This document shows, piece after piece, positions 1,384 through 34,717 of a DNA stretch of 64,000 nucleotides (the stretch's first letter is position 1; every line of letters starts with the position of its first letter). Both the position numbers and the translations under genes were made by a program. Source of the stretch: Heterodontus francisci (taxonomy: Eukaryota); assembly GCF_036365525.1 (NCBI RefSeq), contig NC_090414.1, positions 21,103,846-21,167,845 on the forward strand, read 5' to 3'. The notes beneath the pieces were generated by a model. That model saw nothing but the letters and a program-made list of their open reading frames with translations. It was not told the origin of the DNA and made no database searches.

Positions 1384-1748
1384 GTTAGATACAGAGTAAA
1401 GCTCCCTCTACACTGTCCCCATCAAACACTCCCAGGACAGGTACAGCACAGGGGTTAGATACAGAGTAAAGCTCCCTCTACACTGTCCCCATCAAACACT
1501 CCCAGGACAGGGACAGCACGGGGTTAGATACAGAGTAAAGCTCCCTCTACACTGTCCCCATCAAAAAAAAAAAGACGGGGGTTAGATACAGAGTAAAGCT
1601 CCCTCTACACTGTCCCCCATCAAACACTCCCAGGACAGGTACAGCACGGGGTTAGATACAGAGTAAAGCTCCCTCTACACTGTCCCCATCAAACACTCCC
1701 AGGACAGGTACAGCACGGGGTTAGATACAGAGTAAAGCTTCCCCTCAA
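1384..1748 (+). repeat. ~69-bp minisatellite (Tx1 target repeat), about 5 units, in a RELA intron
   Basis: Unit GGGGTTAGATACAGAGTAAAGCTCCCTCTACACTGTCCCCATCAAACACTCCCAGGACAGGTACAGCAC. Confidence 0.95.
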
Positions 1749-1800
1749 ACTGAGATGGAGACAGTCTGGTACCCGTTTCTACGGTGATTCTCCTACTCAC

Positions 1801-1941
1801 GGTTGTCATAGATTGGGTTGGAGACGACAGGCGGAAGGGGCGCTTTGCAAATCCCAAGCTCGTTGGGAAGAAAGACTTGGAAGCAGAGCCGGACCACGTT
1901 CAAATCTTCCTCTGTCTCGTTCATCAACTCCTCTGGTGAGA
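1801..1941 (-). CDS. RELA: RELA coding exon 6
   Basis: [14 protein letters not shown]...[14 protein letters not shown]; ttgcag acceptor, gtgagt donor. Confidence 0.93.
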
Positions 1942-2214
1942 CTGCAACGTACACAAGATGCCACGGATTAATCAAGAGAGCAGCAGATCCTGAGCAATTG
2001 GGTTGGGTTTGGGGGGGGAGGGGGCCGAGATTTATTCATTCCCAGGCCTCTGGTAATTAGTGCCAGTGGGCCCACTGCCTCCCCAGCCCCACCTCTCACC
2101 ACTACCCTGCGCCACCAAGTCGCACAAACTCAAAGGATTGCAGTTTTGTTGCCCCGTCAGCACCGCCGCCCGCAGTCGAATAGTCAGCCGACGCCATTGG
2201 TCCGAGGTACTCAC

Positions 2215-2306
2215 TGTTGAAGGGGTTGATGTTCTTGTTGAGCCGACTCTGGATGGCGATCGCCACCTCGCGCTTCTTCACGCACTGAATACCCAGGTTC
2301 TGGAAG
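2215..2306 (-). CDS. RELA: RELA coding exon 5
   Basis: [31 protein letters not shown]; 92 nt, AG/GT boundaries. Confidence 0.95.
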
Positions 2307-2499
2307 CTGGAGCACAAAGAGAGGAGGGAGAGGGTTAGGTGTCAACAGGCAGCCCCAGGGCCCCGCTCCGTGACCCCTGAACCCTGCCATTCCCCCCCCC
2401 TCCCTTCGCAGCCCACCCAAGTCCCTCGACCCCACTGGCCCTTCAATCCCTACCTTCCCCCCCCCCTCATCTCTCATACCTCCTTCCCCCTGCACAAAC

Positions 2500-2645
2500 C
2501 TGTGGATGCTCCTCTCAGGCAGCTCAGCCTCGTAGTATCCATCCTTGCAATCTTTCCCGACCAAGTCATGGGGGTGGGGCTTGTACGGTTCCTTTTTGGT
2601 GACGAGGCAGATTCGGATCTTGGCCGGGCCGACGTAGTTCACGAT
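2500..2645 (-). CDS. RELA: RELA coding exon 4
   Basis: [52 protein letters not shown] boundaries. Confidence 0.95.
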
Positions 2646-3037
2646 CTGAACCGCAAGCGGTTAAGAAAGAAAAAAAAAACACACACCGTGCAATTAACAG
2701 CAGCTCACCTGGCTCTCATTGGCGAACCCATTCTCGGGAGGAGACCGTCACCGGCAAGGCAGGGCATTGATTGATACAATGCAGTGGCACATTAACGTAA
2801 CCAGCCCTCAATAAAGGCCGCGTGGTTAAATGACCCGCCCAGTGAGGGACTGAGGCCCACACACACACACACACACACACGCAGCGCGAGTAGGGCCCTG
2901 CGACGGCCCCCCACAGTCAAATAGCTTGCTCACACATGAAGGTCTGGCCTCCCTGGAACAGCACCCGTGGAACCCAGACCCCAGCGAGAGAGAGCCCCTT
3001 GCAGAGAGGGAGGGGTGGGAAACCGGAACATCGAACA

Positions 3038-3470
3038 ATAGAAAGAAGTTACATTTCGATAGCGCCTTTCACCACCTCAGGATATCCCAAAGCGCTTTTC
3101 AGCCAATGAAGTATTTCCTGTTGCATTAGTCACTGTGGTAACGTAGGAAACATTGCAGCCAATTTGTGCACAGCAAGCTCCCACAAGCAGCGACATGATA
3201 ATGAGCAGAAAATCTGTAAATATTCTTCAGGACACTGCGGGGAAGCTCTCCGCTTTTTCTTTCCATTTGTGGCCGCAGGATCTTTGACATCCAACTGAGC
3301 GTGCCTCGGTTTAATGGGTCGTCAGAAAGATAGCCCCCTCTGACAGTGCAGCACTCACGCAGTACTGCACTGGGAGTGTCGGCCTGGATTGTGTGCTCAG
3401 GGCTCTGGGGCTCGAACCGACAAACCTTCTGACCCAGAGGCGCGACTGCTACCCGCTGAGCCATGGCTGA
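3038..3470 (-). mobile_element. Shark tRNA-derived SINE (SacSINE1/DeuSINE-like; family name tentative)
   Basis: Core gcacagcaagatcccacaaacagcaatgtgataatgacc and a B-box-like head; related copies near 7750-8250, 10390-10540, 13420-13680, 22706-23200, 25800-25960, 30990-31130, 32690-33010, 43680-44040, 44810-45160, 47280-47610, 54730-54950. Confidence 0.65.
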
Positions 3471-3549
3471 CAGCTCAATGCAGGGTCAGGGGGGTGGTGG
3501 TGAGAAATCGGCGCCGGTCAGACAGCCCCTCGCTTGCTCTGTGCCTTAC

Positions 3550-31789: not shown

Positions 31790-32305
31790 CCAGGTACAGT
31801 ACGGGGGTTAGATACAGAGTAAAGCTCCCTCTACACTGCCCCCATCAAACACTCCCAGGACAGGTACAGTACGGGGGTTAGATACAGAGTAAAGCTCCCT
31901 CTACACTGTCCCCATCAAACACTCCCAGGACAGGTACAGTACGGGGGTTAGATACAGAGTAAAGCTCCCTCTACACTGTCCCCATCAAACACTCCCAGGA
32001 CAGGTACAGCACGGGGGTTAGATACAGAGTAAAGCTCCCTCTACACTGTCCACATCAAACACTCCCAGGACAGGTACAGCACGGGGTTAGATACAGAGTA
32101 AAGCTCCCTCTACACTGTCCCCCATCAAACACTCCCAGGACAGGTACAGCACGGGGGTTAGATACAGAGTAAAGCTCCCTCTACACTGTCCCCCATCAAA
32201 CACTCCCAGGACAGGTACAGCACGGGGTTAGATACAGAGTAAAGCTCCCTCTACACTGTCCCCATCAAACACTCCCAGGACAGGTACAGCACGGGGTTAG
32301 ATACC
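31790..32305 (+). repeat. ~69-bp target minisatellite, about 7.5 units, CCS intron 5
   Basis: Same unit as 1384-1748, no insertion. Confidence 0.95.
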
Positions 32306-32587
32306 CACCTGAATAATGCGTTTGGGATCCAACTGGAGAGTGATACTTTCCTGTATCTTATACCTGCCGTCCAACTGCCTTTCTGAGTGAGATTACCGAA
32401 TTGGAAGGTATTTATTTTGTGGGGAGATCCGATCCTCTGTGACATGGGAAGAGATTGCCCCCAATTATTTATAGCCTCCTGGGCTCCCTGTTGAGGAGAA
32501 CTGTTGAAACATCCCTCGGACATACTGTGCGAGTCACCCTCACTGCAACTCCCTGGGTGGGCACGGAGCAACACAGACCTCACTTAC

Positions 32588-32648
32588 CCGGTCTACATCC
32601 TGCGGACCGCCGTGCCTGTTTTTTCCTGGATTGTAGTGGTTGCCACAG
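32588..32648 (-). CDS. CCS: CCS exon 5
   Basis: SCGNHYNPGKNRHGGPQDVDR; 61 nt, gtaag donor. Confidence 0.93.
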
Positions 32649-33548
32649 CTGTGGAGGAATCACATGCAAACATTAATCTGCAGCGAGGATGTCACAAAGG
32701 GTGGCTCAACGGTTACGTCCCTTGCCTCTGATTCACGAAGGCCGTGGGTTCGAATCCCACTCCCACTCGCTTCCGGGCTGGCGCTCCCAGTGCCGCACTG
32801 TCGGAGGTGCCGTCTTTTGGACGAGACTAAAACCGAGGCCCCGTTTTCCTTCTCAAGGACGTAAAAGATCCCTTTGGAAGGAGAGCCCCTCCCCGGAGTT
32901 CTGGCCAATATTTATTCCTCAACTAACAACACTTAAATGAAAAAAAAACCCAGATGATCTGGTCACTGCAGTTTATGGGATCTTGCTGTGTACAGTTTGG
33001 CCGCTGCCAGTGGGATAACTGGCTTGTGCACAACGGTGCCACTTTCCAAAACCATTCTGGAACTGGAGATATGTCGCCAATGAAAGGAGCCACAAAACTG
33101 TTGGATTGTCCTAAAAAAATACCCGACCGGCCCCAGCCTGTATGTGACTCCCGTCACACGCCAATGTGGTTGACTCTGAAACGGTTGAGCAAGCAGCTCA
33201 GTTGTCTCCAACCACTTAACAGCACTTTCGACTCACGGGCTGTAGCGGTTCAAGCAGGTAGCTTCCCCACCTCAAGGGGCAATTATTGGATGGGCAACAA
33301 ATGCTGGGCCTTGCCAGCAGTGCTTGTATCCTAAGAACGAGCGAAGAAGAAAATTGGGTTTGGTTGTGATTCCTACCGTGGCCAAATAGCCAGCCGGTGT
33401 CAAGTGCCCAGACTTGGGAATCAGATGGCGCAGCAAAAGTCGGGAACCGGGGACGGGAGAAAAAAGCTGGGCCCCCAACTTTGCTGCCCGTCACCTGTGG
33501 AATCCACCTCAGTATCTCCCTCACACACATTCACGGGCGACACACTAC

Positions 33549-33726
33549 CTGAAGCAGGAACTGCTCAGGTCCCCAAACTCATGCACATGTAAACCGTGCA
33601 GGCCTGGTCTCAGACCGTCGATTGTCCCTTCGATGACACACTGCTTCTCTGACAGCTGCAGGAACCGCACTGCGCCCTTGATGTCACCCTCTGGGCCCAG
33701 CATCGCCACAGCAGCACCCAGGTCCT
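33549..33726 (-). CDS. CCS: CCS exon 4 (SOD-like domain)
   Basis: DLGAAVAMLGPEGDIKGAVRFLQLSEKQCVIEGTIDGLRPGLHGLHVHEFGDLSSSCF; 178 nt. Confidence 0.95.
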
Positions 33727-33753
33727 CTATGGAGAAATGGCACAAGGGCACAG

Positions 33754-34287
33754 GTTAGATACAGAGTAAAGCTCCCTCTACACTGTCCCATCAAACACTC
33801 CCAGGACAGGTACAGCATGGGGGTTAGATACAGAGTAAAGCTCCCTCTACACTGTCCCATCATAAACTCCCAGTGCAGGTACAGCATGGGGGTTAGATAC
33901 AGAGTAAAACTCCCTCTACACTGTCCCATCATAAACTCCCAGTGCAGGTACAGCATGGGGGTTAGATACAGAGTAAAACTCCCTCTACACTGTCCCATCA
34001 TAAACTCCCAGGGCAGGTACAGCACGGGTTACATACAGAATAAAGCTCCCTCTGCACTGTCCCATCATAAACTCCCAGGGCAGGTACAGCATGGGTTACA
34101 TATAGAGAAAAGCTCCCTCAAAAAAAACAAAAAAAAAAACGGGGTTAGATACAGAGTAAAGCTCCCTCCACACTGTCCCCATCAAACACTCACAGGACAG
34201 GTACAGCACGGGGGTTAGATACAGAGTAAAGCTCCCTCTACACTGTCCCCATCAAACACTCCCCAGGACAGGTACAGCACGGGGGTT
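33754..34287 (+). repeat. ~69-bp target minisatellite, about 8 units with variants, CCS intron 3
   Basis: Same unit; the array resumes at 41308-41365 after the Tx1 insertions. Confidence 0.93.
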
Positions 34288-34690
34288 GGCTGGCCGGGAG
34301 GAGGATCTCCTCGTCGGTCTGCTCCTGGGCCTGGCCAAGGTGGCAATTCACAGGTCCAGGTTGCGGGCCGTCGGGAGGTCCGTCCTCCCCGATTGCCTGC
34401 CCCTCTTCCGCGGTTACGTTCGCGCCCGGGTGGCCGTGGAGAAGGAGCATGCGGTGTCCGCCGGTACGTTTGAGGCTTTCCGCGACCGGTGGGCACCGCA
34501 GGGACTGGAGTGCATCGTCGACGCCGAGAATGGCATTTTAATTTGAGTTTTTTGTTTATTTATCTGGTTTTAATAAAGTTATTTTAAAACTGTAAATATG
34601 TACATAAAGGGGGCCTGAGGAATAAAGGCCCTCTCGATGTGAAAAATATAAAAGGGGCCTGGGGTATAAAGGCCACCTTTAAAAAAAAAA
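34288..34690 (+). mobile_element. 5'-truncated Tx1 copy (~0.40 kb)
   Basis: Preceded by cagcacgggggtt; ORF2 end, 3'UTR, poly(A) 34681-34690; followed by cggggtttag. Confidence 0.93.
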
Positions 34691-34717
34691 CGGGGTTTAG
34701 AAAAAAAAACGGGGGTT

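Follow-up and report, generated by a model that had tools for sequence, protein, structure and literature searches.

Element-free poly(A) tracts at the insertion site of a Tx1-clade retrotransposon in a shark minisatellite

Described systems closest to the locus

Several families of the Tx1 clade of non-LTR retrotransposons, which lack long terminal repeats, insert at specific targets: the available parts of PMC4494074, PMC1950540 and PMC10088271 describe families directed to transposons, snRNA genes, microsatellites, satellites and telomere repeats, examples being Tx1L of Xenopus laevis, Keno, Kibi, Koshi, Tx1-Mar and the telomeric Tx1-1_ACar. Telomere-specific Tx1 is known, within those same parts, from anole, and Tx1-Mar of crocodilians appears to mobilize SINEU in trans into its own target. 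Here, we describe a 64,000-nt stretch of the Heterodontus francisci genome (assembly GCF_036365525.1, contig NC_090414.1, positions 21,103,846 to 21,167,845 of the forward strand; hereafter, the window), in which four copies of a long interspersed nuclear element (LINE), E1 to E4, lie within the arrays of a 69–71-bp minisatellite, together with four further A-tracts that end where the tails of the element join the target. Like the described families, this is a LINE with an apurinic/apyrimidinic endonuclease (APE) and a reverse transcriptase (RT), with a fixed position in a multicopy target and tandem insertion; it differs from them in its target, an elasmobranch minisatellite of 70-bp units in which a telomere-like GGGTTAG lies shortly downstream of the junction.

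For the tracts themselves, the closest comparisons are with human L1. Among 6,418 somatic L1 events, 157 were solitary poly(A/T) tracts, attributed to severe 5' truncation, and 705 were orphan transductions (bioRxiv 10.1101/2024.08.27.596794, in the part of the text available). As with these solitary tails, the shark product is a tail alone at a LINE nick; here, however, the site is sequence specific, the copies are fixed in the assembly, the tracts measure 6–20 nt, and they make up three of seven events rather than 2%. L1 transductions are mostly short (248 of 349 under 100 bp), the partnered ones often carry two tails, and their ends are set 10–30 nt past the poly(A) signal (available part of PMC13009371). 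One of our tracts likewise has two tails around a short downstream piece, ending within that distance of a signal, but the carried piece is the target repeat, so that orphans are indistinguishable from target duplication or deletion. Finally, twin priming of L1 leaves an inverted piece on the 5' side, with a duplication (available part of PMC12016303); another tract resembles this, except that the inverted piece would be the poly(A) itself, a case of which we found no description in the portions of the literature available. By analogy, the tracts would work like L1 solitary tails and short transductions, known by-products of such elements. What appears to be new is a Tx1 family that targets a minisatellite: we found no paper on the family or its repeat (Repbase and the tree figure and supplements of PMC4494074, which may list it, lay outside the search), and the available part of PMC10620051 has nothing on this repeat.

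The A-tracts and the Tx1 insertion site

The four element copies are the following.

15502..21885, + strand: E1, Tx1-clade copy of full length within array A3; carries frameshifts and an internal deletion, and its A10 tail occupies 21876-21885
29173..29580, + strand: E2, 5'-truncated copy with an A9 tail and a 4-bp duplication, in a solo unit fragment of ~30 bp
34293..34690, + strand: E3, 5'-truncated copy; A10 tail at 34681-34690
34718..41307, + strand: E4, full-length copy; open reading frame 2 (ORF2) with stops and frameshifts; 5' untranslated region (UTR) different from that of E1

Judged by similarity, without a tree, E1 to E4 are copies of a Tx1-clade non-LTR retrotransposon. E1 carries an APE endonuclease (PF03372), an RT (PF00078) and a zf-RVT domain (PF13966, below its curated cut-off); ORF2 matches X. 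laevis Tx1L at 48% across the endonuclease region and at 55% along 520 aa, and the endonuclease region shares 92% identity with a Heterodontus protein and 73% with an Amblyraja protein. All four tails (at 21876, 29550, 34681 and 41298) join (C/T)G4-5TT, giving the site CAGCA/CGGGG(G)TT, where the slash marks the junction. Flanking duplications measure 4 bp (E2), 8 bp (E4) and 13 bp (E3), that of E1 being imperfect.

The initial annotation had placed bare A-tracts directly before (C)GGGGTT at 1563-1573, 6939-6944, 34120-34139 and 34701-34709. All four exist at those coordinates, ahead of a G-run, although their anatomy is less simple than described: at 1563, a GA separates the A's from the C; the A6 at 6939 is the second half of a T8A6 at 6931-6944, with the C missing; the tract at 34120 reads A8-C-A11; and that at 34701 is hardly bare, for it follows a 10-nt piece of repeat lying right after the A10 tail of a truncated Tx1 copy.

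1563..1575, + strand: tract a, A11 followed by GA; starts in native CAAA, with 3-nt microhomology
6931..6944, + strand: tract b, T8A6, flanked on each side by a copy of the opening ~18 nt of the unit
34120..34139, + strand: tract c, A8-C-A11, preceded by 28 nt from a diverged unit
34691..34709, + strand: tract d, 10 nt of repeat followed by A9, after the A10 tail of E3

A motif of at least six A's, 0–3 nt and G3-5TT occurs eight times in the 64 kb, always on the + strand: four of these are the element tails and four are the tracts, which end, as the annotation had proposed, at the junction used by the element copies. The array DNA of the window (~1,840 bp, ~26 units) holds five non-element tracts of at least five A's, counting A8-C-A11 once, and four of the five end 0–3 nt before the G-run (binomial p ~5e-5 for ~26 units); without 34701, the figure is three of four (p ~7e-4), in both cases on small numbers and for a position picked after the data were seen. 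The 3' ends of all three solitary tracts (a, b and c) fall at the putative nick site of the element, 0–3 nt from the G-run. The fifth tract is an A6 at 27311, which starts at native CAAA, continues into (CA)n and lies away from the G-run site. The tracts in the window arrays are not spread evenly through the unit. Nor do they arise only by slippage at native AAA runs, as there is no native run at 6931, 34120 or 34701. Native CCATC-A runs within the arrays comprise 14 of A3, one of A6, one of A11 (at 1563) and four of a variant A1, with one more A3 just beyond the array bounds used, so that slippage at this run is rare. The tracts are a real, non-random feature, and these data support their production by the Tx1 machinery at its own insertion site.

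Junctions of this kind are also present elsewhere. Sequencing reads were compared with the E1 3' UTR, tail and next unit, and only the best-supported rows were counted. In the best 12 of 444 rows of inserted letters, three hold at least five A's and a fourth continues into the reference tail; each of these four ends at the Tx1 site, the other eight not being A-rich. Two of the best 15 of 208 joints run from a shortened unit into the tail, one of them being found both in contigs and in four raw reads from another individual; a further joint, in run X22, enters the tail near the unit end, probably from a full unit, and four other short-unit joints break at a variant base of the reference, and not all of them are classifiable. 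Additionally, the best 24 of 499 loose ends include a restriction-site associated DNA (RAD) locus of another individual (234 reads), in which a degenerate unit, cut at the 1563 position, is followed by an A-run and the G-run. As the reference has an A-run at the site only, joints there are favoured, whereas the inserted-letters table would show A-rich inserts anywhere; junctions at unit positions ~11–30 are invisible to this reference.

Within the unit, the junctions lie at positions 37, 40–42 and 45–48, that is, 15–26 nt past the AGTAAA at unit positions 17–22, the forms being possibly non-independent. Run X5, which together with X1 represents one sample, possibly the same individual as the window, contains a bare form in which a unit is followed by CGGGGTTAG, A12 and the target, with no element. 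The unit-to-element depth ratio is ~230 in X5 as against ~10 in X1 and X21, a difference that is not evidence of expression, the RNA nature of X5 being a guess. In X1, the contig depth of some junction forms (unit positions 40–48) is 215–662 and that of some single pieces ~7, which suggests re-amplification of tract-bearing shortened units after their formation. Moreover, in raw reads from two other individuals, the commonest loose ends past the G-run carry the 5' motif of the element, GGCTG, which indicates that the site is used beyond the window.

The element copies vary at both ends. E1 begins ATTGGCTG and E4 begins GTTGGCTG (15495-15506 and 34710-34722), and the 5' UTRs of the two are largely unrelated; ATTGGCTG also heads loose ends in run X22, so that some of the apparent duplication may belong to the 5' end of the element itself. 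APE endonucleases show lower specificity in the second cut, and staggered second cuts give duplications or deletions (available part of PMC6895275), which fits the varied 5' junctions seen here. The 3' UTR contains two similar hairpins with AATAAA or TATAAA in their loops (34600-34680 and 21790-21875); E4 is tailed after the first, 12 nt past its AATAAA, and E1 to E3 after the second. Thus, the position of the tail differs between copies, those of E2 to E4 sitting 9–12 nt past AATAAA or TATAAA. The 5' ends of E2 and E3 (~390 bp) lie within 4 nt of each other, at a G-rich stretch ~390 nt from the 3' end (29177 and 34293). This shared truncation point may be an RT stop, a microhomology hotspot or the end of a short master copy; a shared non-autonomous master for the two was set aside, as they are only 90% alike and their 5' junctions differ.

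Anatomy and origin of the tracts

In a tandem array, target duplication, target deletion and carried repeat look alike, and each tract has to be read with this in mind. Tract a lies 23 nt past the AGTAAA of its unit, whose last 22 nt are missing. The shortened unit and the next one differ by two run-length changes in 47, making a 47-bp duplication unlikely; a 22-nt deletion or a carried piece fits. Tract b separates copies that are identical at 16 of 18 positions as aligned, one difference being the C absorbed into the A-run, and this apparent, near-perfect 18-bp duplication fits well with twin priming within the tail, by analogy with L1: the terminal T of the upstream copy would pair with the poly(A), and copying of the tail from there would yield the T's. 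Alternatively, it may be the end of an extremely truncated element, since elements end in T1-3 before the tail. Tract c divides a diverged block from cleaner units. Its upstream 28 nt show four mismatches to the downstream unit and are one base short, although overall they align equally well with the units on either side. We rejected a long target duplication here on account of the four mismatches and of a C variant and a 3-G run shared with the upstream unit. For tracts a and c, either a stop inside the poly(A) with a target deletion or an orphan read-through transduction would serve. The suggestion of aborted insertions accordingly suits 6931-6944 well and is compatible with 1563 and 34120, whereas 34701 looks rather like a second tail.

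The reading of tract d depends on a perfect direct repeat.

34280..34292, + strand: 5' copy of the 13-bp direct repeat, comprising 8 nt of target and the first 5 nt of E4
34710..34722, + strand: 3' copy, which also holds the 8-bp duplication flanking E4

From left to right, E3 and its A10 tail precede 10 nt of repeat and an A9, after which come 8 nt of target and then E4. The direct repeat (13/13) encloses E3, its tail, the 10 nt and the A9, whereas only 5 nt match past the first tail of E3; the second tail ends 30 nt after the last TATAAA of E3. Two tails around a downstream piece, with a duplication enclosing both, are what defines a partnered 3' transduction, and on this arrangement of letters tract d is probably a short, 10-nt 3' transduction with a second tail. 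E4 would have inserted first, and E3, its tail, the 10 nt and the second tail would then have inserted ahead of it as one unit.

We consider it probable that this Tx1 family left the tracts as by-products when its own polyadenylated RNA underwent target-primed reverse transcription. The fixed junction, the tails, the duplications and the recurrence at other loci are observed; what would link them runs as follows. The APE endonuclease would nick the bottom strand at CAGCA/CGGGG(G)TT, the site read from the four copies, and the RT would prime on the poly(A) tail. Synthesis would then stop before reaching element sequence, and the cDNA would join the target on its upstream side. For 6931, the top strand, ending in a T ~18 nt downstream, would have primed in the tail as well, yielding T8A6, and at 1563 and 34120 the poly(T) end would be joined with the loss of 22 and ~41 nt of target, respectively, helped at 1563 by the AAA microhomology. 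Alternatively, at these last two sites the RNA would have read through the genomic tail into the next unit and been re-polyadenylated there. Since the unit after almost every element contains AGTAAA, RNA that reads through would finish in repeat sequence followed by poly(A); the carried piece would anneal to the array and now be invisible, as an orphan transduction, of which 34701 would be the partnered form. Such array-homologous cDNA would close the insertion before element bases were copied and would look like tract a, and orphan closure by homology could explain why three of seven events are bare. Tail aborts and orphan transductions would both be by-products in cis, not separable here; the end product would be a shortened unit with a tail-type junction, and no new array.

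Several observations weigh against this account. The proportion of bare events in the window (a, b and c as against E1 to E4, i.e. three of seven) far exceeds the 2% of solitary tracts in L1, and adding the L1 orphans (11%) narrows the gap without closing it. The GA at 1574 and the C at 34128 are left unexplained by it, and the data examined include neither an empty pre-insertion allele nor an RNA 3' end. With regard to tract d, the X5 form shows the same 9–10-nt piece plus A12 directly after a unit, with no element, and hence the tract could be an independent bare insert, which we regard as possible but doubtful; furthermore, a 2-nt deletion in the sequence of E3 itself would yield the same five letters at 34280.

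Among the alternatives, Tx1 proteins might insert in trans, at the Tx1 site, transcripts of element-free arrays whose 3' ends had formed by cleavage and polyadenylation at the unit's AGTAAA, thereby adding partial and whole units; the apparent trans-mobilization of SINEU by Tx1-Mar is a precedent. The junctions at unit positions 37, 40–42 and 45–48 do fall within the 10–30-nt window of a poly(A) signal, but tract b, tract d and the X5 form (positions ~10–19) lie outside it, and tract c lies 8 nt past a mutated hexamer. Moreover, the clustering is partly a matter of ascertainment, positions ~11–30 being invisible to the reference, and the 45–48 cluster is equally well explained by AAA microhomology. 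The cut after CA at 1563, and the contrast between the block before 34120 and the units after it, would suit insertion in trans; so would the antisense orientation of all arrays and elements relative to the host genes, which is expected if the sense strand had a working signal. Read-through Tx1 RNA would, however, use the same AGTAAA in cis, no carried whole unit is identifiable, and none of the seven arrays has a flanking duplication. On balance, we think this route unlikely.

Events at the DNA level, namely, later deletion of a complete inserted element up to its tail, or repair of a break from a tail-bearing donor array, seem improbable to us. In their favour, a deletion at 1563 would be helped by the AAA microhomology, two unit types lie on either side of the tract at 34120, and several junction forms are found at high contig depth, as re-amplified DNA would be; yet the break would have to fall within a 10-nt genomic tail each time, none of the three bare tracts keeps a base of the 3' UTR (unless the T8 at 6931 is the terminal T-run of the element), and T8A6 with its duplication and the 13-bp repeat would go unexplained. 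Slippage of native A-runs, combined with unrelated unit deletions, is highly improbable. It draws on the starts of the tracts at 1563 and 27311 in native CAAA, but the lack of any such run excludes it for tracts b, c and d, and it explains neither the ends at the element junction nor their recurrence at other loci.

Landing sites, arrays and implications

The initial annotation had further suggested that repeat transcripts are copied back by the Tx1 machinery, and that the element thereby builds and spreads its own landing sites. Seven arrays or fragments of the minisatellite are present in the window, each of them on the + strand; its blocks include the following.

1384..1745, + strand: array A1 (69–71-bp units), within an intron of a RELA-like gene and antisense to it
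6850..6979, + strand: array A2
15454-21967, + strand: array A3, host to E1
27257..27316, + strand: A4, a lone partial unit that closes with A6 at native CAAA and is followed by (CA)n
31791..32304, + strand: array A6, uninterrupted, 7.4 units, without an A-tract
33753..34119, + strand: diverged variant block of units upstream of tract c
41308..41365, + strand: target partial unit downstream of E4

Flanking duplications were sought at all seven, and none rises above the random level: the longest word common to both flanks is 3–5 nt, no more than in random flank pairs. Only one array (27257-27316) ends in an A-run, an A6 with neither a following G-run nor a flanking duplication, and this run may be a slippage control or a decayed tail. 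No array in the window is thus both duplication-bounded and poly(A)-ended, as a retroposed array would be. The idea of self-spreading finds no support on this count, nor does the founding of new arrays by the element find any in the window; copying back of repeat RNA is supported only in a cis form, at 34691-34709, where 10 nt of repeat would have travelled on read-through Tx1 RNA. At every tract, the upstream half of the target (CAGCA) is either replaced or missing, and, with A's in place of that half, a bare tract adds a tail-type junction and no visible intact native site. Native-type motifs number 22 in the arrays (24 in total, two outside), as against eight of the tail type. If tract d is a transduction, all four elements used sites with a native upstream half (degenerate at E2) and none a tail-type site; if it is an independent insert, E4 did use one. 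With so few sites, the numbers are too small to prove avoidance of tail-type junctions.

The four elements and every array share the + strand and run antisense to both host genes, the minus-strand exons of which translate to peptides that appear, from their motifs, to be RELA-like and CCS-like. This one-strand orientation may reflect local spread, or selection that disfavours poly(A) or splice signals in the sense direction. Just past the junction (21886-21895 and all units) stands GGGTTAG, a sequence also contained in the vertebrate telomere repeat. Array A2 starts directly after what is presumably a CR1-like 3' end and runs into a 33-bp minisatellite from a segment that we take to be a short interspersed nuclear element (6820-6850 and 6981-7365). 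Other minisatellites lie at 23445-24259 (64 bp), 42199-42462 (37 bp), 45237-46420 (51 bp), 55614-55975 (45 bp) and 58614-60588 (42 bp), the last inside an 892-codon open frame.

Beyond the window, the unit had no match in Rfam at the gathering score, i.e. no known RNA family at that threshold, and a 28-nt unit pattern had none in viral, metagenome and GTDB contigs. Of the translated-repeat searches, one found no match, one a single weak match and one three (two unrelated and one a possible degenerate unit); they gave no useful match for A-tract junctions in other sharks. In the single weak match (E 6e-3), one 70-bp unit appears to be translated inside a Scyliorhinus torazame gene model, and the repeat is, by this likeness, probably common to sharks.

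A wider role for repeat RNA deserves mention, even if we consider it unlikely: the unit would carry a working poly(A) signal, and Tx1 read-through or array RNAs ending 15–26 nt past it would be copied back at the Tx1 site, sometimes as whole units. The frequent bare tracts and the clustering of junctions after AGTAAA keep an RNA route open and, as whole units carried in RNA would leave no trace without donor tracing, growth of existing arrays is possible. The closest precedent is the expansion of HSATII via RNA-derived DNA (Bersani 2015, cited in the available part of PMC12112567), in which satellite RNA is copied back into its own arrays; that case is somatic, in cancer, and the available text names no site-specific element; in the shark window, such copying back is hypothetical. 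A literature search for a self-regenerating target or for trans-mobilized satellite RNA found no paper.

If this role were true, the element would lengthen and diversify the arrays on which it depends, and element-less tails would be so frequent because of the long homology that carried repeat and target share. If whole units were carried, the family would exemplify, in the germline, a retrotransposon that supplies its own target satellite, with a bearing on the growth of shark minisatellites. In any event, because the nick site is fixed, each failure lands at the same base, making aborted insertions unusually readable in this family; the pathways that form the 5' junction, namely, microhomology, twin priming and transduction, thus become countable genome-wide.

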